Of a stretch of DNA of 64,000 nucleotides, positions 1,540 through 61,939 are shown in pieces. This DNA comes from an uncultured virus (IMG/VR IMGVR_UViG_3300021255_004486) (Duplodnaviria > Heunggongvirae > Uroviricota > Caudoviricetes): the IMG/VR virus record IMGVR_UViG_3300021255_004486; one strand, written 5' to 3'. Numbering within the stretch: the first letter of the stretch is position 1; every line of letters starts with the position of its first letter. The notes beneath the pieces were generated by a model that was not told the DNA's origin, made no database searches, and saw nothing but the letters and a program-made list of their open reading frames with translations. A program made the position numbers and the translations under genes.

Positions 1540-1758
1540 TTTTATTATGCCTATCAGAGTAGTGCAACAGGCATAAAAACCGGTGGAGCAAGCGCATATC
1601 AAATATGGGTTTCTCCTGCAAGTCCTTCATATAATTCAAGTAACGGCACCCTAACAGTCAACCTGCCATATTATAAAATCCACTACTACTTAGGATCGGA
1701 CGGAACCGATAGAGAGTACACATATCAAATCCCCGTTGCCGTTTATTTGATTAAATAG
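1540..1758 (+). other. Silent cassette 7: FYYAYQSSATGI...VAVYLIK* (absent from ORF track)
   Basis: Manual translation, 73 codons. Confidence 0.85.
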
Positions 1759-1979
1759 ACTGCGGTAGGCATACTTTTTGATCCGCTTGAAGCATAATTA
1801 TTAAATCCACCTGACGCAGAGATGCTCGCCGGAGTTACAGTTAAATTACCTGTTGATGTATTAAAATCAATCCCTGGAACGTAAAAATATGCGTACCCGA
1901 ATGCTGTCCCGGAGTACGGCTGAGCTACAGTCGTAGTAACTCCTTTAGTGAAACTATCGTTGGACAATACATAATAAAA
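1743..1979 (-). other. Silent cassette 8: FYYVLSNDSFTK...TAVYLIK*
   Basis: Site on minus at 1969-1980; open frame. Confidence 0.85.
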
Positions 1980-2012
1980 GGACTACGTGAAATTAAATCG
2001 TGTAGTCCTTTC

Positions 2013-2222
2013 TTTTATTATGTATTAAGCTCGAATAGTGGTACAAGTAGCAACTCCTCACAAGGGACAGGGACAGTTACCGCAAGCTTTACTCCGCCCT
2101 CATTATCATACAACCAGACAACAGGCATCTTGAACGTCTCTCCCGGTTATGTTTACGCCTATTTGGGGAGCAAAGCAAACGTCTATGTGTATCCGCCTCT
2201 AAGCGTATATCTACTTAAGTAG
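2013..2222 (+). other. Silent cassette 9: FYYVLSSNSGTS...LSVYLLK* (absent from ORF track)
   Basis: Manual translation, 70 codons. Confidence 0.85.
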
Positions 2223-2435
2223 GTATATATCACAACGCACATTGCTTTTTGAGGTGTTAGGATCATAACCCTGTCTTGTAGTTGATGAATACATATAACC
2301 AGGAACAATTGTTAGTTCGCCAGACGTATTATCAAAGGAGATCGAAGGCCGATAGGCAGTTACGGAGACGGACACCGTACCTCCGGCAGCATAAGAACTA
2401 CCGCCTCCACTCCCCGTAGATTCCACATAATAAAA
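2211..2435 (-). other. Silent cassette 10: FYYVESTGSGGG...CDIYLLK*
   Basis: Site on minus at 2425-2436; open frame. Confidence 0.85.
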
Positions 2436-2447
2436 GGACAAAGTGAC

Positions 2448-2729
2448 TTTTATTATACAGTTTTACCTAATACAGTAGGTGGAACAGCCCTTGTAACACC
2501 AGTTGCAAGTGGTTCTGGCCCCTTTAATATAGAGTACGGATACTATGACGAAAGGATTTCTTATACCCCTGCCTCAATTTCTTACAATAATAACAATGGT
2601 GAATTAAGTGTTACCCTGCCTATTATAGGAGCCGTGGTTGCATGGAGTGATGTAGGAGGTGCTGCAAAAGGATATATGGGGCCGGAAAAGTATCAATCTT
2701 TCCCTATACATTTGTATTTACTTAAGTAA
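2448..2729 (+). other. Silent cassette 11: FYYTVLPNTVGG...IHLYLLK* (absent from ORF track)
   Basis: Manual translation, 94 codons. Confidence 0.85.
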
Positions 2730-2939
2730 ATAGACGACTGTGCTGATCCCGGATGTGGTTGGATAATGCGCGGAACCGGATGTGATCCCTCCATAGATTG
2801 TAGCGGGGGATACAGTTAAAGTTCCTGCTGTGTTATCAAAGGATAGTGTTGGCGCAGAGTATCGAGCCTCCCCCGCAGTCCAATTATCACATCCAGCCGC
2901 ACGAAAAGTAATTGATTGGGATGATACGACATAATAAAA
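2718..2939 (-). other. Silent cassette 12: FYYVVSSQSITF...TVVYLLK* (absent from ORF track)
   Basis: Manual translation, 74 codons. Confidence 0.85.
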
Positions 2940-2973
2940 GGACTACAAAGCCATAGAGTAATGTAGTCCTTTC

Positions 2974-3165
2974 TTTTATTATGTCCCTACTTGGCAAATT
3001 GTTGATGTTTCAAACCCTTTGAGCGGGTTTAAGGCACCCATAATAACCTACGATTCAACTACGGGAGATTTGACCGCATGCTCTTTTTACCACTACAGAA
3101 GAACTGACTCAACCGGACAGCCTCAAGAGAATTGGTGGCCAATAAAGGTTTACTTGATCAAATAA
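2974..3165 (+). other. Silent cassette 13: FYYVPTWQIVDV...IKVYLIK* (absent from ORF track)
   Basis: Manual translation, 64 codons. Confidence 0.85.
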
Positions 3166-7132: not shown

Positions 7133-7649
7133 CCCCATATATCTTCCATATTTTAGATAACTATAAACGGTTGTAAAGGAGGTTATATGAATACTTATCT
7201 TTACGAGCAGACATGCGATGTGTGCAGGCAAAAATTCTGTACAGCGTGCAAAAATGGGAAAGACATACCCATAGAAGAAAAAGAGACAGAAGAGGAGGAA
7301 TCGGAAGATGACGAATGAAGAACTGGAATTGGCAATTCGTACAATCATTGGCGCATAAGCCAGGAGGAGAATGAATATGAGAGCTTCGGAAGTAGCAGAG
7401 TTGATCATGCAGGATAACGAAATAAGCGTTGAACAGTTAATGGAAAACGCATCCTGTAATCTCACATCAGTAATCAGTTGTATTGTATCGATGCGACTGG
7501 TAAACACCGATGAAGACAGTAGTATTCAGCAAAGGGCCCTATTAAATTAGGGCTCTTTTTCGTATACAGAAAACAGTTTTTATTTCCCTATCTTACATAC
7601 TTATTACATAGAGGCTTCGGCGCTCTACATGACATAGCGCAGCCGCCTT

Positions 7650-10999: not shown

Positions 11000-11190
11000 T
11001 AACAGCAACAAGGATGGGGCGCAGATGCGCTCCATTTTTGTATGCTATAATCAAACTGTATGGATGGATTTTTAATAATTTTTCGTGTACAGAAAACCAA
11101 CGTAAATCTCAAATCTTCCATACTATATATAGAAAGGTAAAAATCGTGTATAGAAAATGATATACACAAGCGCAACAACAGGTACAAGAT

Positions 11191-11967
11191 ATGGGTATTT
11201 TCAAAGCAAGCGACTTAAAACTGTATAAGAAGGGTAAGATCACCTTAGAAGAATATATAGATAGGCAGGCACAGGTATTCATCTCGTTCTGCGTTGGGTT
11301 CTTTGATGACACAGTATCGACGAACATGGAGATACGAAGAGCTTTTAACTACGAAGAGATGGATTTTATAAAAAAGGATATTGAAACCGCGAAAACAGAT
11401 CCAGAGTCTTTAAGTGAAATAAGCAAGTCTACTCTTTATGACTGTGCATACGGGGATATAAAGATACTCAAAACATATATCAAATGGAGAAACGACGTTC
11501 ATCTTTCTGGTGCGGCGGTTATACTTAGCGGCACAAATAATGTTGCGGCAAAAGCGGGCAAGCCTCTTTCCAAGGAAATATTTGTAAAGGCATGCTTAAA
11601 GCCGGAGAATATAGCGGCGGCAAAGGAAAAGTATCCGGCAGCAATGAAAGAGCTGATCGACATGCCTGTTAAGACAGGAGGAGAAGGTATAGACTGGACG
11701 AAGAGGCAGAACTACGGACTGTCACTCCTCAAAGAGCACACTTTTTCCAAGTTCTACGACTTCTGTATACGATTTTTGGAGTGCTCAAACACCGGGATAA
11801 ACTGCTTTAATGAGAATGGATTCATCATTGGCGCAGATGGCGAGCTGATGGAGAATGACTTCATCGCTACAGAGTATAAGCACCCCGAGGGGATATTTGA
11901 GATCCCGGGAATTGACGGGTTCAAAGAAATGAGCGTTTCAGACATGATGAAAAGCATAAAGAAATAA
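11191..11967 (+). CDS. Hypothetical protein
   Basis: 258-aa ORF after motif promoter. Confidence 0.7.
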   Translation: MGIFKASDLKLYKKGKITLEEYIDRQAQVFISFCVGFFDDTVSTNMEIRRAFNYEEMDFIKKDIETAKTDPESLSEISKSTLYDCAYGDIKILKTYIKWRNDVHLSGAAVILSGTNNVAAKAGKPLSKEIFVKACLKPENIAAAKEKYPAAMKELIDMPVKTGGEGIDWTKRQNYGLSLLKEHTFSKFYDFCIRFLECSNTGINCFNENGFIIGADGELMENDFIATEYKHPEGIFEIPGIDGFKEMSVSDMMKSIKK

Positions 11968-12034
11968 TTCGTATACAGAAAACACGTCTTGCGATATTTT
12001 TGATTTGCTCATCTTCCATATTTATATTAGAGAA

Positions 12035-12770
12035 CCAAATATGGAAGAAAGTTCGGCCCTGACTAAGCCGGACGAAACATAATCGCCTAAATGCTTCAAT
12101 AAATATCGTAAGATGCGTAGTGACATCAGAATGTTACTGCTTTGGGAATAGTCACCCCAAATTAAGGCAGTTTCAGATATATAAGTCATTAACGGTACAT
12201 CTAAATGGGGCATCTTACGAGACGCGAAAACGTTTGAAGCAACCCAGGCGAGGATGTGCCGTTTTTGTTTTGAACAAATCGGTGGTGTTGAGAGGCAAAT
12301 CACCAGTAAAACAACCTTTGCTACAGAAGACAGAAGTTAATCGTTCTTTAATCTATGCAGGAATCGCCGTTAAAGGGTGTGGGGGTATCCCTGTTCTTAT
12401 CCGGTGATGCTTGGTCAACTGTTCGTTCACGACTAAAAACTGTACTACCCGGATGTAAAACAATGTAAATAAGAACCCTTAAAGGGACACCGTCCTGTGA
12501 GTGGGGAATATGAGGCGATTGATAATCGAGCGCGTTTGATGGCAGACCTTGGCGCTGAACGCCTTTGCAGGCGCAAAACTCGTAGCCTCTGGTAACAGAG
12601 GCGGATAATACGGATACCGACCGTCATTCGACGGAAAGTGTGTGTGTTATTCTTCCTTTCGTAGATATGTATGTAAGTGACGCTTTGGAAGTGTGCATAT
12701 CTGCGAGGGGGAGGGATGAAGCCGTGTTCCGCCGTTTTCTCTGGAAAGGGTGGGTGAGCAGCTCATATAA
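12035..12770 (+). ncRNA. Candidate large structured ncRNA (about 700 nt)
   Basis: No credible ORF; many nested helices; motif promoter directly upstream. Confidence 0.55.
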
Positions 12771-12875
12771 AGTAAATCTTTCTGTATACGAAAAACAGGC
12801 GAAATCCTTGTTATATTTCCGTTGTTATTCCACTTTTACTGTGTAACTGATAACTGCATAGTAAAGGAGGTTCAC

Positions 12876-13028
12876 ATGCCGGAAATCAAGTATAGCTATA
12901 TTTCCAAGGGTAGCGACGGATACTACCGTGTTACAGCAGGAAGTGACATCAGTATTACTTGTGATGTCGGCGAACTCGATGAGACTATCGAGGAGATCCG
13001 TTCTATGATGACGGAACTGGTTGCATAG
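12876..13028 (+). CDS. Small hypothetical protein (50 aa)
   Basis: AAGGAGG RBS. Confidence 0.6.
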   Translation: MPEIKYSYISKGSDGYYRVTAGSDISITCDVGELDETIEEIRSMMTELVA

Positions 13029-13211
13029 TCCATCAATTAAACATTTGCAATGTCAAAGAAGAGCCCGTACATTCGGGCTTTTCTGTTCTTATTTTTTCTT
13101 ACTTCACCCACATTTACAGTGTAACTGTTATGAGTAATGGAGGTAATAATCGAATACCTCCTTTATTTATGCTTAATTTTATCGTTGCGCTAAGTGCAAG
13201 GAGGAATCAGA

Positions 13212-14186
13212 ATGAAGAAACATACAAAATGGAACGAGGTTCTCATCAACGAGTTAAGAGAACTGGGTAAATCACATACCGCAGCAGAAATGCTTGTATT
13301 ATCGGGCTGTGATAAGACTATGACTCTTGCGTCTTTTAAGAGCAAACTCAGTAATTTCAAAATTCCCTATATCCCCACCGATAACAGCAATGTCATAGCT
13401 CAGTCTGCAACTGTATCTGATGATATAGTTATAGATAACTATAACAATGAAGTTAAGACGGAGAGGAAGACCACTACAAGGAAAAACTGGGAAAGAAAGA
13501 GTTTTGAGGAGCACCTGTCTGAATACATCGAGTTTAAGGCTAAGTATGGTAGAAATCCCAAATCTGGAATACCGGAAGAAAAGTCTCTTTATAACTGGAT
13601 GTTCAATCAGACTGCCAGGATCAAAGCAGGGAAGTTATCTTCTGACAAAATCGCTCTTTTAGAGAAGGCCGGCGTTGATATCCCTAATAGAGGAAATCAA
13701 GCGGAATACCTCAAAGAAAAGGGTATTGTCACGGAAGAGGACTATTGCTTTGGTGCAGGAGATAATATCTCCGCCCGTATGCAGAACTATTTGGCAAAGG
13801 TTGAATCGGCACGGAATAATTTCCCCGAGCGTGGAACATACTTTTACAAATGGATCAGCATACAGTTTGCCCACAACGGGGCAGCCTTAAAAGACTGGCA
13901 GAGGGATGCCTGGATCGCGGCAGGATTTAAGATTAAGGCATTTTCCTGTGGACGAGATAAGAGTGGTTATACGCTCACAGAGGGCCGTAAAAAGGCCTGG
14001 GTTGAGAAGTACACTCAGTATGCATCGTTCATTAAAGAGACCGGACGCATCCCGAGAAACAACAAGGAATGCAAGGAAGAGGCTGCATTGTACTACTGGA
14101 AGCATGCTGAAATCAAAGCCATACTTAAGAACACTCGCACAGACGAGCAGATATCATATCTTAAAAAAGTAGGTATCGCAGCATAA
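13212..14186 (+). CDS. Protein with helicase-associated (HA)-like repeats
   Basis: Two repeats of type W/FEE...F...GR-P...E..LY.W...Q...L...G. Confidence 0.65.
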   Translation: MKKHTKWNEVLINELRELGKSHTAAEMLVLSGCDKTMTLASFKSKLSNFKIPYIPTDNSNVIAQSATVSDDIVIDNYNNEVKTERKTTTRKNWERKSFEEHLSEYIEFKAKYGRNPKSGIPEEKSLYNWMFNQTARIKAGKLSSDKIALLEKAGVDIPNRGNQAEYLKEKGIVTEEDYCFGAGDNISARMQNYLAKVESARNNFPERGTYFYKWISIQFAHNGAALKDWQRDAWIAAGFKIKAFSCGRDKSGYTLTEGRKKAWVEKYTQYASFIKETGRIPRNNKECKEEAALYYWKHAEIKAILKNTRTDEQISYLKKVGIAA

Positions 14187-17100
14187 TAAGGAATTCGATT
14201 AAAGCCATCCAATTTTGGGTGGCTTTTCCTTATTTTCGGCATCATAACTCATTCTTAATATATCCAATAAACCCCATAGTGGAGAATAAAACATAAGGAG
14301 GAAAAAAATATGGGTACAAGCGTTGAATTTGACGCTATTTTGCACAGCAATCTCAAACTGATGAATGAGATGTTTATCAAGTTCATCACGGGACAGGGCA
14401 CGATAGCGGTCAGAAACGAGCGGGATTTTCGCCATTTCATTGAGCTTCTGGAATACCATAATGTGTTATTCATAATGAATAACCCCGGTAAATACAGAAA
14501 CTACGATGAGTGGGTTCATCTCGCAATAGCCAATAACAAGAAGCACGATGTATTCTGCTTCGAGTATCAACCTGGTAAAGGGTTATCATGGTACGACAAC
14601 GTAGAAGAGCCTACCAAATGGTATGGTGAAGCTCCGATGGTTATACCGGAACCCGAGATGCCTTGGTAAAGGAGGAGGAATAAAAAATGCAGAAATTCGC
14701 AAAACAGTGGAACGGTAAGACAATCGAGGACTGGGGAGGATACCAGTCTATCGAGTGGAAGTCGTTCTGTAAGTGCTTCAAAGGTGCTATTAAGCGTAAC
14801 ACCTATGGCTACGAGATCAAGGGCGAGAAATCTTTTAGCCCCGGTCATTATTGTCTGTCAGGCTTTGTCGCAAAGGGAGATGCTCATTATTACATCTCTT
14901 TTGACTATGACCGTGGACTTCCTGTTAATCTTTCCAAGAAATCCTGGGCAGGCCCGATTCTTTGGAGAAGAGCCAAGGACACCAAGGATTATCACGGAGG
15001 TATCAATCACTTCTCAACGGCTGAAAACCTTTTTGACGAGATCGAGGCCGACTTTGAAGCAAGATGCAGGGAGGTAGCATAATGAGAGGCATTCCAAGAT
15101 CATGTATCCTTGTCTGTAATACGAAATGGGGATACATAATGGCTCCGATCGAATGCAAATCTATTGCCGAGGCTAAGAGAATAGGTGATAGCATGGATAT
15201 GGCATACCGAGTTCTTGACACTAAGGGCAATTTGATTTGCCGAGGTTAACTTTTTATCCCGCGTGAGGGGATTGTTTAATTGCAACCCCGTCTCACGCGC
15301 GGGGTAGGAGAAAACAATAATGACAAAAGAAGAGTTTGAGGCAAAATGCTATGAAGCATACCAATTAGACTGGATGATATCTCATGGCTGTTCAATAAAA
15401 GATATAAAAACTGCTTTGTTGGACGGTCTCAGAGAATGCGTGGGCTATGACCCGATTACAGATGAAAATAAACTGAGGGTTGCCTGGGAAGACGCGGAAG
15501 ATCTATTTGAAAATCACCAGGGCTTCGGCTCGGGAAGCATCTATGTATGTAAAGAGGAATTCCTTGGAGCAGAGTTTGAGGACGATGCTTACATGGAACA
15601 CCTTATCTCGCTTATGCCAAATTCTAAAGAGATGGAAAGGTTTTGGCGTACAAAGTATAAGCGATGCACTTATCAGCCGAAAGCCGAAGTCGCAACATCT
15701 GCGGGAGTTATTAAAGCATACGAAGACACCAATCCCGATCAACCGGGCATTTCAGTCGTTCTTCAGCCTGCGGGTATGGATTGTGAGATAGATCTTTCGT
15801 ATATCTCTGTATACGAAAATTCAAATCTCGCCACCCGTGGTCAGCGTCCTGTTGACGTAGTCATTGCTACATTCGCAGACGCATACAGTGAAGATTACAC
15901 ATCGTATGACATTATCCGCAGAGAAGATGTCGTAGAAGCACTGAAGGAGGAATAAAGATGAATCTTACAGGAATGAGCTTCACCCTTAAGATGGATCGCC
16001 CGATCAAAAGAGAGCAGCACTACATTTCTCCCGGCGGGTACATCTTAAATGGCAAAGAGTTTGATTTTTGCCGTTCCCAGGGTTGTATTGATGATAGAGA
16101 CAAGTCAAAAGTCCACTTCTATGTGGACGATATCGACGAATCCTATTCAGAAGATATCACTCCCGAGGATGTTTCAGGCGAGTTTTCGGAATTCTTCGTG
16201 TATACCGGAGAATACGATGAACCCGAGATCAACGCCGTAAGAGTTGAGGGGCTTAAGTTCTACTTCGGCAATGACCTTGTCGAGTGCCCGAGGCAGGCTC
16301 TTGAGTCGGCAAACGAATGCTTAATAGCATAGGAGGAAGCAGGATGAAGATGATAAGACTTACCAGAAGCATCACACGAGCCGAGAGTGAACCCGTTTAC
16401 ATCAATGTAGACGCTATTTCTTCGATTGAGAAGGATCAGCAGACTGCTCTTACCAAAATCTGCCTTACAAACGGAGGTGTATATTCCGATATATGGGAGA
16501 ACGTAGACGAGGTTATAACCAGGCTCCGCGAGGCAGGGCTTAATATCATATAAGGAGGAATACAATGGTAATCAAGGACTTCGTAAAAGACGTTACCGCT
16601 TTTGCGAACGATGATGTTGAAGCAATCAAGGCTATCGCTCTTTATAATAAGGGCGCAGCTCCTTTCGAGGATACGCTTAAGTATATCATCGCTCTGTATG
16701 AGAAAAAGAAAAACTGAATATGTTTACAAGGAAAAGAGTCTTCGGGCTCTTTTCTTTATTTTTGCTCATATATTCCACATTTATTGTACATTCGTAGCTT
16801 AAAACGGAGCAAATACAATATAAGGAGGAATAAATATGGATTATTTGAAAGCTCAGATTTATGAGCCCGACCTTAAGCTAAATGGGACGCTTCCCGAGCT
16901 TATAGATCAGGCAAATCGTTATCCATCAGATTATTCTGATGAAGCGCTTGAGCGTATTTCAGAGTTGGCCAAAGATTATGGAATGGATGAGCAGTATGTT
17001 CAGATCCCACTTCTTATCAAGGCTGAAAGAAAACGCACAGGCGTTCCTTATGAGAGGATGAAGATAGACTGGTATCTTTCCAACCAGATAAGCTATTCTG

Positions 17101-21864: not shown

Positions 21865-21936
21865 TCCCCCATAGTGTAGAGGTAACACGACTGACTGTTA
21901 ATCAGTTATCCCATGGTTCGAGCCCAGGTGGGGGAG
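21865..21936 (+). tRNA. tRNA-Asn(GTT)
   Basis: Cloverleaf, CTGTTAA loop. Confidence 0.9.
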
Positions 21937-22064
21937 CTCATAGAGATAGACGGAACAGGCACCCGGAAGTCTCACAATTAACCAAAAGTAAACAATCAAC
22001 AAGGTGAGTTAATCATCAAAAGAAAGGAAATAAAATGAAAGTTCGATTTAGAACCGTCTGACAT

Positions 22065-22137
22065 GGACGGTTAGCTTAAAAGGTGAGAGCGCCGGGTTGA
22101 AGCCCCGGAGAGACAGGTTCGATACCTGTACCGCCCA
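22065..22137 (+). tRNA. tRNA-Phe(GAA)
   Basis: CCGGG-TTGAAGC-CCCGG arm. Confidence 0.85.
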
Positions 22138-22219
22138 CTGAAAAATTCGTGTACAGAAAACGGATGCAATACAGTTTTCTTCCATACTTAATATAAACCT
22201 TGAAAATTAAATCATTATC

Positions 22220-22293
22220 GGCTCTGTAGTGGAGATGGCCAACACGCCTGCCTGTCACGCAGGAGATCGCGGGTTCGAGCCCCGTCAGAGTCG
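22220..22293 (+). tRNA. tRNA-Asp(GTC)
   Basis: Cloverleaf, CTGTCAC loop. Confidence 0.9.
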
Positions 22294-22298
22294 CTTAA

Positions 22299-22406
22299 GC
22301 ATACGGTGGTGGAATAGGTAAACACATTGATAGTAGCAAGACCGAATGGAAGTCAAACACAGAGGTCATGTAAGGTGACAGAAATTCAAATCCTTACCCG
22401 TATGCG
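22299..22406 (+). ncRNA. Atypical tRNA-like element
   Basis: GCATACGG/CCGTATGC acceptor, Leu-like D arm, T arm with 9-nt insertion, no canonical anticodon arm. Confidence 0.5.
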
Positions 22407-22675
22407 AAAATTTGGGGATAACAAAAGGCAGCATATTTCTCTCCCACGAAAGCAGGAATTTGCCTTTTGCCCCGTGTATGTGTAAAACCGGATAGGGAAT
22501 TCGTGGCCCCCTGGTACACCATACACAAATTGGGTAAGCAAATTAAGATGGGATGCGAGTGGTTTCCTGCGGTGCCCTCTTACCAAAACGGCGAGGAGAT
22601 GGTTGGGTTTCCTGTACCTAATAACTTAGCGGTATTGTCGCGGCAGGCCACTCCGGCAATATGAAACAGGAACAT

Positions 22676-22748
22676 GGGTCAGAGGTCGCAATGGGGTGAC
22701 GCGAGTTTTGCAAACTTGAGATGGCGGGTTCGATTCCCGTGTGATCCA
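22676..22748 (+). tRNA. tRNA-Ala(TGC)
   Basis: CGAGT-TTTGCAA-ACTTG arm; G3:U70 pair. Confidence 0.75.
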
Positions 22749-22749
22749 C

Positions 22750-22820
22750 TCGGGATTAGTTTAATAGGAGAACGGCTGTCTTACAAACAGCAGGCGGTGG
22801 AGCGTAACCATCATTCCGAA
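22750..22820 (+). tRNA. tRNA-Val(TAC), atypical T loop
   Basis: GCTGT-CTTACAA-ACAGC arm. Confidence 0.75.
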
Positions 22821-22824
22821 CTAT

Positions 22825-22895
22825 CGAGTATGTGGTGTAATGGGAGCACGCGCGCATAGGGAGCACGAGGCGACGTTCGAATCGTACATATTCGA
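22825..22895 (+). tRNA. tRNA-Pro(AGG)
   Basis: CGCGC-ATAGGGA-GCACG arm; C1-G72, A73; imperfect stems. Confidence 0.65.
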
Positions 22896-22898
22896 TTT

Positions 22899-22970
22899 CG
22901 AGAACGAAGTGTAAAGGTTTGCACACTGACTTCGGGAGTCAGTAGAGTGGTTCGAGTCCAACGTTTTCGA
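22899..22970 (+). tRNA. tRNA-Pro(CGG)
   Basis: CTGAC-TTCGGGA-GTCAG arm. Confidence 0.8.
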
Positions 22971-23106
22971 CTTGTAGCAGAAGCCACCGCTATGTCACCT
23001 TGCTACGGCTTGGAAGTGTTGCAGCACAGTGGATTTGGATGCAATTTGCCTTGGATGCATCAGAAGTATAAATGAGTAGCGCTGTTAGTTTATGCTTTGG
23101 CAATAC

Positions 23107-23179
23107 TGCGGATTAGAGGAGATGGCAGCCTTGCAAGGTTCATACCCTTGAGACACCGGTTCGAGTCCGGTATCCGCGA
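23107..23179 (+). tRNA. tRNA-Met(CAT), initiator-like
   Basis: CAAGG-TTCATAC-CCTTG arm; non-Watson-Crick 1:72. Confidence 0.8.
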
Positions 23180-23210
23180 TTTGACTCCTCAAATTTGAGG
23201 AGTCGGACAA

Positions 23211-23283
23211 GCCCGATTCGTCTATCGGCGAGGATACGTGGTTCTCAGCCACGAGAGGTTGGGTTCAACTCCCACATCGGGTA
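23211..23283 (+). tRNA. tRNA-Glu(CTC)
   Basis: CGTGG-TTCTCAG-CCACG arm. Confidence 0.85.
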
Positions 23284-23289
23284 CTATAT

Positions 23290-23363
23290 GGCTCCATCGT
23301 CTAACCGGAATAGGACGTTGCCCTTTCAAGGCAGAAACGGGAGTTCGAGCCTCCTTGGAGCTA
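23290..23363 (+). tRNA. tRNA-Glu(TTC)
   Basis: CTTTCAA loop. Confidence 0.9.
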
Positions 23364-23365
23364 CT

Positions 23366-23437
23366 GTGACTATGGTATAACGGCTATTACATCGGGTTGT
23401 GATCCCGAGGATTCGAGTTCGATTCTCGATAGTCACC
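23366..23437 (+). tRNA. tRNA-His(GTG)
   Basis: TCGGG-TTGTGAT-CCCGA arm. Confidence 0.9.
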
Positions 23438-23510
23438 GCAGGAGAAATCCTTGCAGTACCTTAATAACAATATAGGGATGTCGGAAACAGGCACTTTCGA
23501 TGTCCCACAT

Positions 23511-23581
23511 GTGGGTGTGGTGTAATGGTAGCACACAACCTTGCCAAGGTTGCGGTACGGGTTCAAATCCCGTTATTCACT
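23511..23581 (+). tRNA. tRNA-Gly(GCC)
   Basis: TTGCCAA loop. Confidence 0.9.
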
Positions 23582-23646
23582 CTTGGTGAATCTTCGCAGA
23601 AGCGATACTAACACCGATTTGTGTGGGTGAAGTCACCCACCAATTC

Positions 23647-23719
23647 GTCCGTGTGGTGTAATGGATTAGCACGACTGCCTTCCAAGCAGTAAATCTCGGT
23701 TCGATTCCGAGTACGGGCT
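23647..23719 (+). tRNA. tRNA-Gly(TCC)
   Basis: CTTCCAA loop. Confidence 0.9.
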
Positions 23720-23720
23720 C

Positions 23721-23792
23721 TGGGCGTTCGTACAATGGTTAGTGCCTTCGTCTTATACGCGAATGATAACAGTTCGATTCTGTTACGCCCTA
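23721..23792 (+). tRNA. tRNA-Ile(TAT)
   Basis: TTCGT-CTTATAC-GCGAA arm. Confidence 0.8.
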
Positions 23793-23877
23793 CTCGGCTG
23801 TAAGTAAAGAAAACGGCCAAAAATTTTAATAAGAACTTGGAATGGGATTCTTATTAAAGCAGATTTATATTAAAAAT

Positions 23878-23949
23878 GCCGTCATGGCGCAATGGTAGCG
23901 CAAGTGCCTTGTAAGCACTGGGTTGTGGGTTCAAGTCCTACTGGCGGCC
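23878..23949 (+). tRNA. tRNA-Thr(TGT)
   Basis: AGTGC-CTTGTAA-GCACT arm. Confidence 0.9.
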
Positions 23950-24025
23950 CTTTAAGGAGAAAATAAAGATGTTGCGATTACGATTGCTCCGACTGTGGAG
24001 TCTACAAATGAATAGTTCTTAATAC

Positions 24026-24102
24026 GTGCACGTAGCCCAATTCGGCAGGAGGCAGGGGATTTAAGCTCCTCACAGTGATCGGTTCGAGTCCGTCCGTGCA
24101 CA
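24026..24102 (+). tRNA. tRNA-Leu(TAA), short variable region
   Basis: TTTAAGC loop. Confidence 0.8.
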
Positions 24103-24106
24103 TTGA

Positions 24107-24180
24107 GTGCCCGTGACGGAATTGGAATACGTACTGGAATAAGAATCCAGGTTTTGAGAGTTCAAATCTCTCCGGGCATA
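24107..24180 (+). tRNA. tRNA-Leu(AAG), short variable region
   Basis: CTGGA-ATAAGAA-TCCAG arm. Confidence 0.8.
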
Positions 24181-24185
24181 CTTAA

Positions 24186-24259
24186 GGCCGACTACCCCAA
24201 CCGGAAGAGGGAATACGTTCAGAGCGTATCAAGTCTCGGTTCAAATCCGAGGTCGGCTA
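24186..24259 (+). tRNA. tRNA-Leu(CAG), short variable region
   Basis: ATACG-TTCAGAG-CGTAT arm. Confidence 0.8.
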
Positions 24260-24260
24260 C

Positions 24261-24336
24261 GCAGGCGTATCCCAACTGGCAGAGGAGGCAAGCTCAAACC
24301 TTGTTAATCGTGTGAGTTCAAATCTCACCGCCTGTA
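24261..24336 (+). tRNA. tRNA-Leu(CAA), short variable region
   Basis: GCAAG-CTCAAAC-CTTGT arm. Confidence 0.8.
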
Positions 24337-24357
24337 CTTAATAACAAAGGAGTAGAT

Positions 24358-24582
24358 ATGTCAGAAGAAGCTCTCGAATGGGGAATACACATCCTTGTTC
24401 CACAAATAGCGGGTGACGAATGTAAGCACTACTTTACGTGTCCCGTATGCGGATTCCATTATACGGATTATATCGGGAGTCCTGCAAAGGAAAGCTGCCC
24501 AAAGTGCAACACGGTGCTCGTAATCGGAAAGTTCTATACGGGCTCAAGAAATAAGATTTTGAAGGGAAGTGGTTCATTATGA
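24358..24582 (+). CDS. Small zinc-ribbon protein inside tRNA array
   Basis: CPVCG...CPKCN; AAGGAG RBS. Confidence 0.65.
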   Translation: MSEEALEWGIHILVPQIAGDECKHYFTCPVCGFHYTDYIGSPAKESCPKCNTVLVIGKFYTGSRNKILKGSGSL

Positions 24583-24610
24583 TTGATTATTATTATAAGG
24601 ACAACATTAA

Positions 24611-24694
24611 GGGCAAGTAAGCATAGCGGCGATTGCGGCGGACTGTAAATCCGTTACACCAGAAACACCGTAGGTTCGAGTCCTACCTTGCCCA
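24611..24694 (+). tRNA. tRNA-Tyr(GTA)
   Basis: CTGTAAA loop, long variable region. Confidence 0.9.
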
Positions 24695-24765
24695 CTCAAA
24701 ATAATACAAAGGAGAAGATTTATGAAACGAAAACAGAAACAAAAGCACAAAATTCATAAAGACAT

Positions 24766-24837
24766 GCGTCTGTAGCCAAGTGGTATGGCAGCCGGCTTTT
24801 AACCGGCATATCGGGAGTTCGAGCCTCTCCAGGCGCA
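24766..24837 (+). tRNA. tRNA-Lys(TTT)
   Basis: GCCGG-CTTTTAA-CCGGC arm. Confidence 0.9.
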
Positions 24838-24880
24838 TTAGGGATAGAAATATCCGCTATGGCAAGATTCGCCGTAGTGC

Positions 24881-24953
24881 GCCTGTGTAACTTAACTGGC
24901 AGAGTAGCGGTCTCTTAAACCGAAGGTTGCAGGTTCGATTCCTGTCACAGGCA
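24881..24953 (+). tRNA. tRNA-Lys(CTT)
   Basis: CTCTTAA loop. Confidence 0.85.
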
Positions 24954-25177
24954 TTAAGGCATTGACTTAAACAGTCGATATATAAACTATAGGAGATATT
25001 TACAATGAATACAATGGTAGTAATGATTCAAATTTCATCAAGACGCTCACAGTCCAGGATTCAAAACTGGATTAGTTGTCGTGGAAAGGATGTATATGGA
25101 TAATACGCGAATCTTACTCAATATCCGATAAAGTGGGGATCATTGCAAGGATTTGCGGTGGTCTCCATTTTTTATAT

Positions 25178-25261
25178 GCCGTAGTCGCTCAGTTGGTGGA
25201 GCCCCTGTCTTGAAAACAGGTAGCCCGAAAGGGTATGTAGGTTCAAATCCTATCTACGGCG
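25178..25261 (+). tRNA. tRNA-Ser(TGA)
   Basis: CTTGAAA loop, long variable arm. Confidence 0.9.
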
Positions 25262-25266
25262 CTCAT

Positions 25267-25353
25267 GGCGGTGTACTCTAACTGGAAAGAGACTTGTCCC
25301 GAAAACAAGCGTAGCGAGAAATCGCGATGAGGGTTCGACTCCCTCCGCCGTCG
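25267..25353 (+). tRNA. tRNA-Ser(CGA)
   Basis: CTTGT-CCCGAAA-ACAAG arm. Confidence 0.85.
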
Positions 25354-25356
25354 TAT

Positions 25357-25453
25357 GGTCACGTAACCCTAACTGGTAAGGGACATGTTTGCTAAACATG
25401 CAGTAATCGGGCAACCGGTGTCCGGTGTCGGAGTTCAAATCTCCGCGTGACCG
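25357..25453 (+). tRNA. tRNA-Ser(GCT)
   Basis: TTGCTAA loop, long variable arm. Confidence 0.85.
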
Positions 25454-25457
25454 CTAA

Positions 25458-25528
25458 ATATCCTTGGTGTAATGGTAGCACGGCGAGCTCCAACCTCGCA
25501 GACGTGGGTTCGATTCCTACAGGATGTG
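25458..25528 (+). tRNA. tRNA-Trp(CCA)
   Basis: GCGAG-CTCCAAC-CTCGC arm. Confidence 0.85.
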
Positions 25529-25531
25529 TAC

Positions 25532-25603
25532 ATCCCCGTAGTCTAACAGATAGAATACTTGGCTACGAACCAGGTGATGAGGGTGCGACTCCTTCCGGGG
25601 ATG
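25532..25603 (+). tRNA. tRNA-Arg(ACG)
   Basis: CTACGAA loop. Confidence 0.85.
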
Positions 25604-25607
25604 CTGA

Positions 25608-25680
25608 TGCCGCATAGTTCAGATGGTAGAACGCTTGATTCTGACTCAAGAGGTCGCAGGTTCGATCCCTGCTGCGGTAG
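25608..25680 (+). tRNA. tRNA-Gln(CTG)
   Basis: CTTGA-TTCTGAC-TCAAG arm. Confidence 0.85.
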
Positions 25681-25684
25681 CTAT

Positions 25685-25758
25685 GGCAACGTACTCAAGA
25701 GGCTTAAGAGGCAAGTCTGCAAAACTTGTATTTGGGGGTTCGAATCCCTCCGTTGTCT
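25685..25758 (+). tRNA. tRNA-Cys(GCA)
   Basis: CAAGT-CTGCAAA-ACTTG arm. Confidence 0.9.
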
Positions 25759-25762
25759 TTGA

Positions 25763-25833
25763 AGGGGATTAGCCTAACGGTAGGGCATCGGATTTTGGTT
25801 CCGAGTGTGAGAGTTCGATTCTCTCATCCCTTG
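25763..25833 (+). tRNA. tRNA-Gln(TTG)
   Basis: TCGGA-TTTTGGT-TCCGA arm. Confidence 0.9.
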
Positions 25834-25837
25834 CTTT

Positions 25838-25910
25838 GCGGGCGTAGCTCAGTTGGTAGAGCACTCGTCTGATACGCGAGAAGTCGCAAGTCCGATTCTT
25901 GCCGTCCGCA
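25838..25910 (+). tRNA. tRNA-Ile(GAT)
   Basis: CTCGT-CTGATAC-GCGAG arm. Confidence 0.85.
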
Positions 25911-25914
25911 TTTG

Positions 25915-25986
25915 GTCTCGTTAGTTTAATGGATAGAACAGGGGACTTCTAATCCTCCGATGCGGGTTCAACTCCTGCACGAGACA
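25915..25986 (+). tRNA. tRNA-Arg(TCT)
   Basis: CTTCTAA loop. Confidence 0.9.
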
Positions 25987-26080: not shown

Positions 26081-26417
26081 TTATAAAATAACAAATTTTC
26101 GTGTACAGAGATGATTCCGACTCTGATTCGCCTTATTTTTGCCCACATATTCCACTTTTATCATATCAATCGATAACAGAAATGGCGCAAATTCAATATC
26201 AATAAAGGAGGAATCAATATGGAAGAACTTGCCAATGAGTTATACGAAACAATAAGGGATTATGATCCCTATGAGGCGGCAGACAATGATTGGAGCGTGG
26301 AAAAAGCATCCGAGATGCTTGCAAACGATCCGGTAACCGTAATCTCTGCTCTTTGCCGTATGATAAACGGCTTAAGAGAGTGTCTCGAAGAATCAGCAGC
26401 GTAAGGAGGAGCGACAA

Positions 26418-42006: not shown

Positions 42007-42459
42007 ATGAAGAAGTTCGCAAAGGCAATGTTGTTTGCGATAGCATTTTCTATGCTTATCGCTATCGTCCCCATGAAGGCAGAGGCAGCAGACCTCAAGG
42101 CTAACGCTATTGAACTGCGCATCCTTGACCAGGTTAATGCACAGAGAATAGCAGCAGGACTTTCAGCTCTTACCTACAACAAATCAATGCAGGCAGGAGC
42201 AGAGACAAGGGCCGTAGAGGCTGACCAGAAATGGTCACACACCCGCCCCAATGGGCAGGACTATTGGACAGTAGATGAGGACATCTATGGAGAGAACCTC
42301 TCCAAGGATTATTCATCCGTTGATTCGATGGTTACTGGTTGGATGAACAGCCCTGCACACCGCTCGAATATCCTCTTTGGAGATTTTCAGACGGCAGCAG
42401 TAGGAGTTGTTCAGAAGGCTGACGGAACATACGTCGTTGCCTTCGAGTTCGGTTATTAA
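42007..42459 (+). CDS. Secreted CAP/SCP-domain protein
   Basis: Signal peptide; VNAQR, SHTRPNG, GENL, WMNSPAHRSNIL. Confidence 0.88.
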   Translation: MKKFAKAMLFAIAFSMLIAIVPMKAEAADLKANAIELRILDQVNAQRIAAGLSALTYNKSMQAGAETRAVEADQKWSHTRPNGQDYWTVDEDIYGENLSKDYSSVDSMVTGWMNSPAHRSNILFGDFQTAAVGVVQKADGTYVVAFEFGY

Positions 42460-42632
42460 GGAGGAATTCTTAACCCAATCAAAATTCTTAACTTGAGAAA
42501 GAGCGCTGCATTATGTGGCGCTCTTTTACTTTGCCTTAAACCTTTGATTTTACTGGGATTGTCGAAACACAGGTACGACAGCAAATCCCAAAAAGTACGA
42601 CGGCATGATGTCGTTGAAAAGTGTGGTATAAT

Positions 42633-42806
42633 ATAGTTGTAGGTAAGCCCGACATGCGTCGCCGATAAGTACGCATATATGATGCGAGGACGTATGAGCC
42701 TCAACTTTGGAAATGGCAGGGAAACCTACAGCTATACAGAGCCTCGTTGATAATGGTGAGGTCAACGTGTACACAAAAGAGAGTCGAGCAATCGGCTCTC
42801 TTTTTC
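42633..42806 (+). ncRNA. Candidate small RNA with own promoter and terminator
   Basis: TGGTATAAT upstream; ATAGTTGTAGGT/ACCTACAGCTAT stem; AGAGAGTCGA..TCGGCTCTCTTTTT terminator. Confidence 0.45.
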
Positions 42807-43345
42807 TATCCAGTTTCCTCTGTATGCGATTTTCAGACCGTGAAACATGGTTTTCCACTCGCAGATCTCCTGCAAAATCCTCACCGAGAACGTCCAACGT
42901 CCTCCGTGTTCGTATTTGATATGATAATAGATAACGAACTTATAAAAGCCGATTTTTCGTTATACCCTCAATTAAAAACCGACAATTACATCAAAACTTA
43001 AATACCCCAAAAAGTAGTACAGCAGAGTACATAAAAAGCGGTATTGTAAGCAATGCTACAGTCTGCTACAATACCATTACACATAGTCTAAGGACACATA
43101 GATGCCGTGTGCCGATTCCGGGATTTATCTGTCTATGACTTCGCCATATAGTGTATAAGGGCTCCCGCAAAAACTGCGAGAGCCTTTATTATGGGAGATT
43201 ATATGAACAGCGAGTTAATCACACTTTCATATTTGGTACAAATAGTATAAAATGTATTTAAGTCGAGGCGACACACTGACGGATGTTAGAGTGCCCAGCC
43301 TCTTCTTTTTTTTTGTTAAGAGTGAACTCGATTCGAGTATATATC

Positions 43346-43729
43346 TTATATGTCTCCGACATCCACGATGCCCATAACCAACGATTCCTCGTTGTCATTC
43401 GGGGCATTCTGAATATAATCCATCGCACCGCCGGAAATAAGGTTGTCATCAAACTCTTCAAGTCCGGCTACAGGAGTAAGATCAAATCCGTTAAGCGCCA
43501 TCAGATAGTTCTCAAAATGGTCATCATAGAGGTTTATCCCATTTGATCCGGTCAGATTGGCCTCGCTCTTATACTCAGTCTTACCATTTGCATTCTTAAG
43601 TGCTGCAACAAACGCAAAGGGCAGCTTATTTACCCGGCAGAGCTTCTTTATCTCAATAACCTTCGGTTCTATCTCTGTCTTATAAAAATGCGTAAGGTCA
43701 TATTCTGTGTAGTTGATGTCTTCTTTCAT
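43346..43729 (-). CDS. Hypothetical protein
   Basis: AAGGAG RBS; in operon with par-like genes. Confidence 0.7.
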   Translation of the reverse strand: MKEDINYTEYDLTHFYKTEIEPKVIEIKKLCRVNKLPFAFVAALKNANGKTEYKSEANLTGSNGINLYDDHFENYLMALNGFDLTPVAGLEEFDDNLISGGAMDYIQNAPNDNEESLVMGIVDVGDI

Positions 43730-46651: not shown

Positions 46652-46922
46652 ATAATATCCTTCCTTCGTGTCAATATAGCGACTTATAATCGTGGCTTCT
46701 ACAATGCCTATTCATTCGCTTACAAGATAAGTATGTAAGATTCGATTTTGAAATCATTTTTCTGTACACGAAAAATTTGGAATTTTACACTTTCAGCCAC
46801 ACATAGGCGATACCAAGAGCCGATACGAGCCACTACACCCGATTCCCTGCGTTTCAGATTTTTGACCGTTACTTATTCCACACTTAATTAAAGAAGCAAA
46901 ATTATCATACGGAGGAATCAAA

Positions 46923-52759: not shown

Positions 52760-53040
52760 GTCAATAACCCACGGCTCAAGAACCGGTGGGCTTGAGTAAA
52801 AGGATTTACGATTTACTCAACGTCCACATATTGACCAGCCTAAGTGCTTTACGCACTACGTTAGGAGAGAATATATAGGCACCGTAGGATATTAAGCCCA
52901 GTCCTACGCTCTGCGGCCGGTGATTAAACAGTCCTGTTGGGTAGGGACAGTGTTATCGGCACATAAACCTCTCATTAACATTGGCGAGGGCTAACCAACG
53001 GTACGATGCACACCGGCTTATAGCATAAAGTGTATCAATA
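52760..53040 (+). ncRNA. omegaRNA (HEARO-like) scaffold
   Basis: TTGACCAGCCTAAG, CTACGTT, CTCTGCGG, ACATTGGCGAGGG elements upstream of iscB. Confidence 0.8.
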
Positions 53041-53060
53041 AAGGGAAGGAGTGCCTTCAA

Positions 53061-54299
53061 GTGGTATATGTGTTAAATAAAACCGGACATTCGCTTATGC
53101 CTACTGAAAGGCACGGTAAAGTCAGACGGATGTTAAAGTCCGGCGAAGCAATAGTTGTAAAGAAATGTCCGTTTACGATACAGCTCACATATCACACTAC
53201 AGGAAGAGTACAACCTATATCTTTGGGTATAGATGCAGGAAGCAAGACTATCGGAGTGTCCGCCACCATAGAAAGTAAGGTGCTTTACGAAGCGGAAGTT
53301 ACTTTAAGAAACGACATCGTGGATTTACTTTCAACCCGTAGAGAATGTCGCAAGACAAGACGAAACTGTAAAACACGCTACCGCAAGCCAAGATTCGATA
53401 ATCGTACCCGTAAAAATGGTTGGCTTACCCCAAGTATACAAAACAAGGTAGATACACACCTTAAAGTGGTTGAAAACGTATGCAGAATACTTCCTGTAAG
53501 CAAGATAGTAGTTGAGGTTGCCGCATTTGATATACAAAAGATAAAGAATCCCGGTATAGAGGGCGAACAATACCAACAGGGCGACCAACTCGGCTTTTGG
53601 AATGTCCGTGAGTATGTACTTTTCAGAGACGGGCATACATGCCAATGCTGTAAGGGTAAGTCAAAGGACAAAATCCTTAACGTCCACCACATAGAGAGTC
53701 GTAAAACAGGTGGAGACGCACCAAATAATTTGATCACTTTATGTGAAACCTGTCATAAAGGTTATCATGCCGGTACGGTCAAACTGCCAAAGATCATTAA
53801 ACGAGGCATGACATTTAAGGATGCAACTTTTATGGGGATCATGCGGTGGGCTTTCTATAACAGACTAAAGGAAATGTATCCAAATGTAAGCTTCACCTAC
53901 GGATATATAACAAAGAACACGCGCATACAGAACGACTTACCAAAAGAACACCATATCGACGCAAGGTGTATATCCGGCAATTCAACAGCAAAAACCGCAG
54001 GAGAAGTTTTCTATCAAAAGAAAATAAGATGCCACAACAGACAACTGTACAAGAGTACCATTCTAAGAGGCGGACGCAGGAAGCTTAACCAGGCAGGTAA
54101 ATATGTAAAGGGATACAAGCTGTTCGATGTTGTTAAATTTAACAATAATACATATACAATCTTCGGAAGAAGAGATAGCGGCTTCTTTGACATAAGAACA
54201 CTATCTGGAGAGAAGATCAACAACGGTAGTATTAGTTGCAAAAAACTTAAGTTTATATCACACCAACAAAGTTTTATAACAGAAAGGAGGACTGCCTAA
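53061..54299 (+). CDS. iscB: RNA-guided endonuclease IscB
   Basis: SLMP (PLMP-like), LGIDAG RuvC-I, Arg-rich helix, CQCC..HH..NLITLCETCH HNH, HHIDA RuvC-III. Confidence 0.93.
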   Translation: MVYVLNKTGHSLMPTERHGKVRRMLKSGEAIVVKKCPFTIQLTYHTTGRVQPISLGIDAGSKTIGVSATIESKVLYEAEVTLRNDIVDLLSTRRECRKTRRNCKTRYRKPRFDNRTRKNGWLTPSIQNKVDTHLKVVENVCRILPVSKIVVEVAAFDIQKIKNPGIEGEQYQQGDQLGFWNVREYVLFRDGHTCQCCKGKSKDKILNVHHIESRKTGGDAPNNLITLCETCHKGYHAGTVKLPKIIKRGMTFKDATFMGIMRWAFYNRLKEMYPNVSFTYGYITKNTRIQNDLPKEHHIDARCISGNSTAKTAGEVFYQKKIRCHNRQLYKSTILRGGRRKLNQAGKYVKGYKLFDVVKFNNNTYTIFGRRDSGFFDIRTLSGEKINNGSISCKKLKFISHQQSFITERRTA

Positions 54300-60597: not shown

Positions 60598-61812
60598 ATG
60601 GATACATTCACAATCGCTGACGTGGCGCACATACATGGTATAGCACCACTTAAGCAAAACGGCGGAGAAGTCTTCGCTGTATGTCCTTTCTGCGGAGACG
60701 CACGAGGCAAATTCTCTTATGTAATAGAAAAGGGTAGTAAGAGAAATATCTACAACTGCTTCGTATGCGGAGCTCACGGAGATTCTATCGACCTACATAT
60801 CAACCTCTCAACAGGTGATTATGCAGGTTCAGATGGCAGGAAGAGAGCAGCCCGCGATATATTTCACGAGATAAACGGTGACAACAGCCTTGCAGATTTT
60901 CATAGAGCAATGGCAGAAAGCATCAAGATCGTGAACGAAGTAGAGAGATCTTCTGATGAAGCATGCTCTAAAGTATATTACGCGCTACTGCGTAAACTCG
61001 TCTTAAATCATTCCCACAAGGAAGATTTACTGAGGCGAGGACTTACAGAAGAGCAGATAAAGAGATTTCTCTTTAAGTCGGTGCCCACAAGGGAAGAGAA
61101 GTACCGCATTTGCAAAGAGCTTACAAATGAAGGATACTCACTCTTTGGTGTTCCCGGTTTTTATACTAACAAGTATGGAAAATGGGATATCAAGTTCCCC
61201 GGGGACGGATACCTTTGCCCGGTATATGACGGAGAAAGAAATCTGATACTTGGATTTCAAGTACGGATGGACAATCCCAAGAACGGAACAAAGTATCTGT
61301 GGCTGTCTTCATCGGGCCGTGAAAATGGCGTAGGGAGCGGTTCTCCCTCGACATATCTTCCCGGAAGGGACGATAAAACCGTGGTCGTGACCGAAGGAAT
61401 CCTTAAGGCAACAGTGGTTTACTGTTTGCTTAACGGAGAAGTCTCCGTGATAGGAGTTCCCGGGGTAAACTCAATCTCTGGATGTAAAGATTATCTTCAT
61501 CGCTTTGGTGGAGATGCATTCATTCTTGAGTGTTACGACATGGATCGCCTTGCAGATCCCGGCGATGATGCTGAAAAGGCATTCAAGATCGAGAAGTTAA
61601 ACCAGGCCTGGGAAAATCTCTGTACACTGATTTCTGAATATAACCTCCCTTATCACAATATGAAATGGGATGTTACGGAAGATAAGTGGAACGGAGAGTA
61701 CAAAGGGCTTGATGATTTTCTCTTTGATTACCCTTATCGAGAGAAATTCCTTGCTTATATCCAGAATATGAGCAAAAAAGAACTGGGGTTAAGACATTTC
61801 CTCAGTGAATAA
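60598..61812 (+). CDS. DNA primase (Zn-finger + Toprim)
   Basis: CPFCGD...CFVCG, VTEGILKA, YDMD, KGLDD. Confidence 0.82.
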   Translation: MDTFTIADVAHIHGIAPLKQNGGEVFAVCPFCGDARGKFSYVIEKGSKRNIYNCFVCGAHGDSIDLHINLSTGDYAGSDGRKRAARDIFHEINGDNSLADFHRAMAESIKIVNEVERSSDEACSKVYYALLRKLVLNHSHKEDLLRRGLTEEQIKRFLFKSVPTREEKYRICKELTNEGYSLFGVPGFYTNKYGKWDIKFPGDGYLCPVYDGERNLILGFQVRMDNPKNGTKYLWLSSSGRENGVGSGSPSTYLPGRDDKTVVVTEGILKATVVYCLLNGEVSVIGVPGVNSISGCKDYLHRFGGDAFILECYDMDRLADPGDDAEKAFKIEKLNQAWENLCTLISEYNLPYHNMKWDVTEDKWNGEYKGLDDFLFDYPYREKFLAYIQNMSKKELGLRHFLSE

Positions 61813-61939
61813 TTATCCAATCAGACACAGGCTCCGGGCGCGCTTACCATTCGCACGTTCGGGGTTTGTTTTTGCCTATATTTTAGATAAACTAACATAC
61901 TTATATTACCAAAAATACTGTTAAGGAGGATAAATAAAC

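Follow-up and report, generated by a model that had tools for sequence, protein, structure and literature searches.

The 64,000-nt stretch of DNA analyzed here (the window) contains, between a 258-aa gene (11191-11967) and a 330-aa helicase-associated-domain gene (start near 13194-13214), a gap in which an earlier note, made from the letters alone, had proposed a single highly structured non-coding RNA of about 700 nt at positions 12035-12770 (hereafter the stretch). The question is whether such an RNA is what the gap holds. The window is part of a large, tRNA-rich, phage-like genome, with genes for an integrase, a PhoH-like protein, thymidylate synthase, helicases, a primase, a DNA polymerase and an IscB-type HNH protein. 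A 162,233-nt contig on record carries 50-aa and 258-aa proteins identical to those of this locus, and the phage is therefore at least 162 kb in size. Its tRNA genes, 29 according to ARAGORN and 30 according to Rfam, lie at 21865-25986, all on the plus strand and without a suppressor, and their anticodons include the unusual Pro-AGG, Leu-AAG and Ile-TAT. The feature itself is real: it is non-coding, promoter-proximal and partly structured. The elements discussed below are collected in Table 1.

Table 1. Sequence elements in and around the stretch, in window coordinates
Feature	Position	Strand	Details
Upstream box TTCGTATACAGAAA of the phage class-1 promoter motif	11968-11981	+	25 matches in the window
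Core promoter P1	12000-12029	+	Sigma-70-like TTGATT (12000-05), 17 nt, TATATT (12023-28)
Perfect 12-bp inverted repeat TCTTCCATATTT / AAATATGGAAGA	12012-12048		Spans the -10 region and the predicted start site
5' module	12051-12257	+	7-bp hairpin (12051-73); long bulged arm (12077-12257) with small hairpins inside
Middle segment	12263-12524	+	262 nt without significant structure
3' module, run of hairpins	12529-12754	+	Pair probabilities 0.78-1.0
13-codon mini-ORF (putative)	12716-12757	+	Read from the sequence; directly after SD-like GAGGGGGAGGG (12706-15)
Inverted copy of the upstream box	12779-12792	-	Perfect 14-bp complement of 11968-81
Second promoter-like motif ATTCCACTTTTA	12827-12838	+	Precedes the 50-codon gene; also at 16772 and 26149
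Direct repeat TTTACTGTGTAACTGATA	12835-12852; second copy 13113-13130	+	
50-codon gene (probable) with SD AAGGAGG	12876-13028	+	Positive codon log-odds; four variants in the protein collection
First plus-strand intrinsic terminator after P1	13057-13084	+	11-bp stem, T tail

The coding gap described in the earlier note proved to be genuine, with ORF, recoding, codon and family tests all negative, and the stretch is non-coding. The longest ORFs within it encode 95 aa (plus strand) and 93 aa (minus strand), with others of 68 and 60 aa. No long frame opened across the stretch when TAG was read as Gln, when TGA was read as a sense codon (table 4) or when TAA was read as Gln; a recoded gene was rejected on this ground, together with the lack of a suppressor among the 29 tRNAs. 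With 25 long ORFs from the window as the training set, codon log-odds were positive in no frame over 11950-12775, as against +17 to +40 for the flanking genes. Of 10 stop-to-stop frame translations of the stretch, none matched Pfam and the best PHROG match had an E value of 0.007, which is not a significant family match. The 95-aa ORF had no relative among 5.8 billion protein clusters, and none of 10 ORF translations was present among the called-gene records, a look-up in which GTG and TTG starts were perhaps read differently.

The promoter that had been claimed ahead of the gap is real as a recurrent motif, with counts far above expectation. Its upstream box matched 25 times in the window at two mismatches or fewer (0.71 expected), and its second element, TCTTCCATATTTATATTA, matched six times (0.19 expected). 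Both elements occur together in 13 plus-strand copies, P1 included, and in one minus-strand copy (46772). The box and TCTTCCATACTTATAT are spaced by 18 nt in 12 of the plus-strand copies and in the copy at 46772, whereas the spacer in front of P1 measures 30 nt and contains a sigma-70-like -35 hexamer; here TCTTCCATATTTATATTA, at 12012-29, overlaps the sigma-70-like TTGATT-17-TATATT. In general form the bipartite phage promoter reads TTCGTGTACAGAAA, 18 nt, TCTTCCATACTTATAT; it was noted at 25 sites (e.g. 5123, 9036, 22146, 48145 and 59711) and precedes most plus-strand genes as well as the tRNA array. Because this bipartite motif comes without a sigma-70 -35 element, its sequence suggests a phage-encoded or phage-modified transcription factor.

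An SD and a start codon follow within 48 nt at 9 of the 13 plus-strand two-element copies. The four exceptions are the P1 copy (11968-12029), the copy preceding the tRNA array, the copy at 7559, which has a 200-nt leader, and the copy at 11082, where the SD filter missed the start at 11191, ~60 nt downstream. After P1, no credible start codon is found for about 850 nt. From the sequence we infer that the stretch is transcribed, as well as where its transcript starts and ends and any regulatory role; the start would fall at ~12034-12037, ~7 nt past the promoter motif, in agreement with the earlier reader.

No intrinsic terminator was found on the plus strand between P1 and 13057, and the first one to appear sits 3' of the 50-codon gene. 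The 3' boundary originally given at 12770 was wrong, as folding extends to about 13090 and so, probably, does the transcript. The 50-codon gene is probably a real gene: the four natural variants of its product in the protein collection differ by conservative replacements only. The product is acidic, conserved and of no known family. A 13-bp hairpin at 12830-12865 covers part of the SD of this gene. Two further repeated elements were noted. One is a second promoter-like motif, ATATTCCAC(T/A)TTTA, which precedes three genes (12827-12838, 16772-16783 and 26149-26160), and the other is a local direct repeat, TTTACWGTGTAACTGWTA, found in front of both the 50-aa gene and the 330-aa gene. With respect to sequence, the attributes of a structured leader or transcribed spacer are all present: a promoter upstream, no coding signal and no terminator before the next gene.

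The proposal that the stretch folds better than shuffled sequence held for the stretch as a whole and for its 5' and 3' modules, but not for the middle segment. The plus strand of 12035-12770 had an MFE of -247.4, compared with -209.6 +/- 6.5 for shuffles (z -5.84), and none of 20 shuffles folded as well; the minus strand gave z -5.18. The 5' portion (12036-12262) showed no strand preference, with z -5.15 on the plus strand and z -6.01 on the minus strand. For 12263-12524 on the plus strand, z was only -0.64, with 52 of 200 shuffles folding equally well, and 200-nt sliding windows starting between 12150 and 12400 ranged from z +1.0 to -1.2, so that "highly structured" does not apply to the middle third. 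The 3' portion (12525-12770) scored z -5.40 (-102.7 kcal/mol) on the plus strand and z -2.89 (-67.0 kcal/mol) on the minus strand, a bias that stems from the many G-U pairs of this segment. The 200-nt sliding scan gave the same modular picture and placed more structure at 12750-13250; a window of 12535-13270 reached z -11.2, and -15.8 in a separate dinucleotide-shuffle calibration.

In that calibration, 33 other 736-nt windows were folded of 42 planned. The median z was -2.05, and two of the 33 windows scored better than -5.84, these being 12535-13270 and 42535-43270 (-8.46). With z values of -5 to -6, the stretch equals the windows of the tRNA array, which hold true structured RNAs (-3.35, -4.25 and -5.6), and two coding controls gave z -1.02 and -0.91. 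In a regression of MFE on base composition the stretch ranked 47th of 211, a control confounded by the fact that the G-rich windows hold the tRNAs and the stretch itself. A special RNA cannot be recognized from the z-score alone, because 42440-43360 scores better (z -8.62). That region is also hairpin-rich, and spacers dense in hairpins are thus a trait of this phage genome.

Other non-coding or strongly folding regions were noted elsewhere in the window. A second stretch of ~0.9 kb without a credible gene, 42460-43345, lies between convergent genes and contains strong hairpins, several of them followed by U-runs; Rfam at E <= 1 returned nothing beyond noise for 42440-43360. The region 61535-62270 (z -8.85) covers the 3' end of the primase gene, an intergenic terminator and promoter, and the 5' end of the DNA polymerase gene. 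Two other long regions, 400-1290 and 1603-3149, likewise contain no ORF of at least 80 aa, and windows at 535-1270 and 2035-2770 gave z -3.59 and -1.56, respectively.

Every complementary pair listed in the earlier note is present at about the place given for it. All of these pairs belong to the MFE structure, each with a mean pair probability of 0.97-1.0, except for two. The long-range pair GGAAGAA (12043-12049) with TTCTTCC (12650-12656) is not used by the MFE, and ACTGCTTT and AAGGCAGT are given alternative partners. A single nested architecture of 700 nt is not borne out, as its outer 7-bp pair is the one left unused and the alternative closing pair has a probability of 0.23. In the 5' module, TCGCCT (12083-88) pairs with AGGCGA (12246-51), GCTTCAA with TTGAAGC, and TCGTAAGATGC (12106-16) with GCATCTTACGA (12210-20) as a perfect 11-mer. 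The helices of the arm at 12077-12257 are ACAU/AUGU, UCGCCU/AGGCGA, UGCUUCA/UGAAGCA and the 11-bp UCGUAAGAUGC/GCAUCUUACGA, with probabilities of 0.97-0.99, and the 5' helices contain no G-U pairs. The 3' module is a series of hairpins at 12529-56, 12560-73, 12585-12602 (7 bp, GCCTCTG/CAGAGGC, with a GUAA loop), 12604-51, which includes CCGTC/GACGG (12621-34), 12652-12713 and 12728-54. The pair beginning TCGTAGATATG and ending CATATCTGCGA belongs to the hairpin at 12652-12713, which has 19 bp, 6 of them G-U, and in which an SD-like run, GAGGGGGAG, is buried.

A likeness to GOLLD and ROOL RNAs, suggested in the earlier note, found no support from covariance models. In cmscan over 11900-12950, six matches were returned at E <= 10, all of them noise (best mir-2068, with 20.3 bits where the gathering score is 99), and GOLLD, ROOL, OLE, RNase P, group I and II introns and HEARO were absent among the six; at the gathering score, no Rfam family was found in the stretch. 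The Rfam search works, because the same library found HEARO at 52760-52999 with 140 bits, besides 30 tRNAs elsewhere in the window. This HEARO (omega) RNA is directly followed by a 412-aa HNH/IscB-like gene, and 52760-54299 is an IscB-type element within the phage. No tRNA or tmRNA was detected in 11900-13200, and a tRNA-like or tmRNA identity was rejected; the nearest tRNA, at 21865, is 9.1 kb away. The portions of the literature on GOLLD, ROOL and large phage RNAs that were available describe no such element.

Homologues of the stretch were sought by several routes. Distant-mode blastn against phages and plasmids returned none, and an exact 24-mer of the stretch had no match in viral_contigs. 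Degenerate translated probes were made for the two longest plus-strand ORFs of the gap; the one for 12120-12407 found no relative in viral, genome, metagenome or protein collections, and the one for 12640-12846 found none in genome and viral collections. The neighboring proteins, searched in viral_contigs and by tblastn against phages, gave no route to homologous DNA. A 543-aa neighbor had 50 distant relatives at E <= 0.001 (best 36% identical), in whose alignment no block was conserved enough to serve as a query, and the closest of them had no kin in viral_contigs. In 401 genomes from the family of a Lachnospiraceae MAG, reached via the PhoH-like gene, only seven matches of 21-31 nt were found, and the two inspected both lie in apparent histidine-kinase coding sequence. 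Within the window itself, the search for an internal paralogue returned promoter-motif matches only.

The promoter pattern had no matches in the viral collection or in genome_contigs and five in metagenome contigs (L001-L005). Three of these (L002, L003 and L005) are short contigs that match other parts of the window at 100% identity, and L001 did not match the window. The remaining one, L004, is a 68-kb relative that has only the promoter in common with the window when 300-nt flanks are compared. At 343-560 of L004, ~210 nt with no obvious gene and no Rfam or tRNA match come after the promoter motif, and the start of the ORF beyond this gap resembles the 699-aa helicase of the window. The 258-aa neighbor of the stretch had one relative in the protein collection (95% identity), encoded on a contig of 12.5 kb on which a variant of the 50-aa gene is found as well. 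Because this contig carries both flanking genes, the stretch is probably present in that related strain too, between the 258-aa and 50-aa genes. The lineage is rare; further related strains are represented by contigs of 729 and 1130 nt.

Taken together, we tentatively prefer, at somewhat less than even confidence, to read the stretch as a transcribed, non-coding structured leader or spacer whose hairpins act locally, rather than as one global, ornate RNA. P1 would fire at ~12035 into roughly 840 nt that encode nothing, and the RNA would fold into two independent hairpin clusters, the 5' and 3' modules, joined by an unstructured linker of ~270 nt. Because there is no terminator in between, the transcript would pass the second promoter-like motif and the 50-codon gene and end at the terminator at 13057-13084. 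The hairpins may serve as sites of processing or stability or may mask translation, the candidates for masking being the 19-bp G-U-rich hairpin over the SD-like run and the 13-bp hairpin over part of the SD of the 50-codon gene. Against a leader, the minus strand of the 5' module folds at least as well as the plus strand, which makes this module equally compatible with a palindrome at the DNA level. The 50-codon gene needs no 840-nt leader, because it has its own promoter-like motif in front. In a compact phage genome, such a length is also a great deal to spend on a leader and is more in keeping with a free-standing RNA. The z values of -5 to -6, which equal those of the true structured RNAs in the tRNA array, count against a leader as well.

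We consider it unlikely that the stretch is such a free-standing RNA, that is, a large structured non-coding RNA of a new class, either made from P1 or cut from a read-through transcript and closed by pairing of 11968-81 with 12779-92, and in both cases acting in trans during infection. Trans action in infection is suspected for GOLLD and ROOL. The 840 nt free of ORFs behind a promoter of their own in a gene-dense phage point in this direction, as do the strand-specific 3' module and the use of the same promoter class by the tRNA array, and with no Rfam match the RNA, if real, would be new. The overall z of -5.84 argues for it as well, but folding of the middle third is at chance level, a second gap in this phage reaches a comparable or better z, and the closing helix available from the inferred start is unstable at a probability of 0.23. 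The 14-bp stem between the two boxes appears in both the MFE and the centroid of 11960-12800 and improves z to -7.38. For the inverted box to close the fold, transcription would have to begin upstream of P1; entry from upstream is possible, because the 258-aa gene has no terminator after its end. Nevertheless, the stem is no more than the pairing of two copies of the promoter box, which is frequent in this genome (25 matches). Neither a terminator nor a defined 3' end was found for such an RNA, and no homologue was found in the phage, plasmid, viral, genome and metagenome collections searched. More doubtful still is the boldest version, in which 11968-12792 would represent a new class of two-domain, trans-acting RNA of 0.75-0.83 kb, driven by the promoter class of the tRNA array, and a third kind of giant phage RNA beside GOLLD and ROOL; this putative RNA would so far be confined to one rare lineage of ~160-kb phages.

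That the locus is instead a regulatory or replication element acting at the level of DNA, with inverted repeats as protein-binding sites and an incidental RNA fold, is likewise improbable. The repeats in question include the 12-bp palindrome that overlaps the promoter and the long imperfect palindrome at 12077-12257. Folding of the minus strand about as well as the plus strand, both in the 5' module and over the whole stretch, is consistent with such an element, as are the perfect palindrome across the -10 region and start site, the inverted promoter boxes at both ends and the 5' helices without G-U pairs. The arms of the 5' palindrome are, however, interrupted by asymmetric loops, unlike a typical operator, and the 3' module, which relies on G-U pairing, is 36 kcal/mol less stable when the opposite strand is folded. 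Nor is the 11-mer GCATCTTACGA enriched (18 matches compared with 18.2 expected), for which reason it was rejected as a repeated operator.

A decayed gene or unrecognized small-protein genes, for which the four short ORFs and the 13-codon mini-ORF behind its strong SD-like run might be taken, are very improbable given the absence of codon signal in any frame and of family matches, the lack of relatives of the 95-aa ORF and the absence of all 10 ORF translations from the called genes. A diverged member of GOLLD, ROOL, OLE, RNase P, the group I or II introns or HEARO, an idea that drew only on the size and phage context pointed out by the earlier reader, is close to refuted by the cmscan results and by the absence of tRNA and tmRNA.

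Should the stretch prove to be a true large structured RNA, the very few families of giant phage RNA on record would gain another, with its promoter already defined and a tRNA-rich phage at hand for its study. As it stands, the phage keeps several kilobase-sized, hairpin-dense non-coding spacers, and the stretch offers a caution for scans of this kind, as two local hairpin clusters can yield a strong 700-nt shuffle z-score.

Among known systems, the nearest by size and setting are GOLLD and ROOL, which are as a rule found beside tRNAs and are reported to form multimeric cages (10.1101/2024.12.08.627333). Like these, the stretch is several hundred nucleotides long, non-coding and phage-borne, in a genome with many tRNAs and a Firmicutes-like host, and has no known partner protein; unlike them, it has no model match, is not adjacent to tRNAs, is unstructured over one third of its length and belongs to no known family of homologues. 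Within the same phage, the gap at 42460-43345 is similar in being ~0.9 kb without a credible gene, with many strong hairpins, z -8.62 and no Rfam match. It differs from the stretch in its position between convergent genes and in having several hairpins that look terminator-like, with U-runs behind them, and no sequence is common to 42460-43345 and 11968-12795. RNase III hairpins occur between the early genes of phage T7, and the preferred leader or spacer reading finds its closest counterpart in structured spacers and leaders of this type. At 840 nt the present case is far longer, and its processing is only proposed, but like the T7-type spacers it combines long, near-perfect hairpins of ~20 bp in non-coding RNA between genes, a predicted promoter-driven transcript, hairpins that are followed by no U-tract and SD-like sequence buried in stems.
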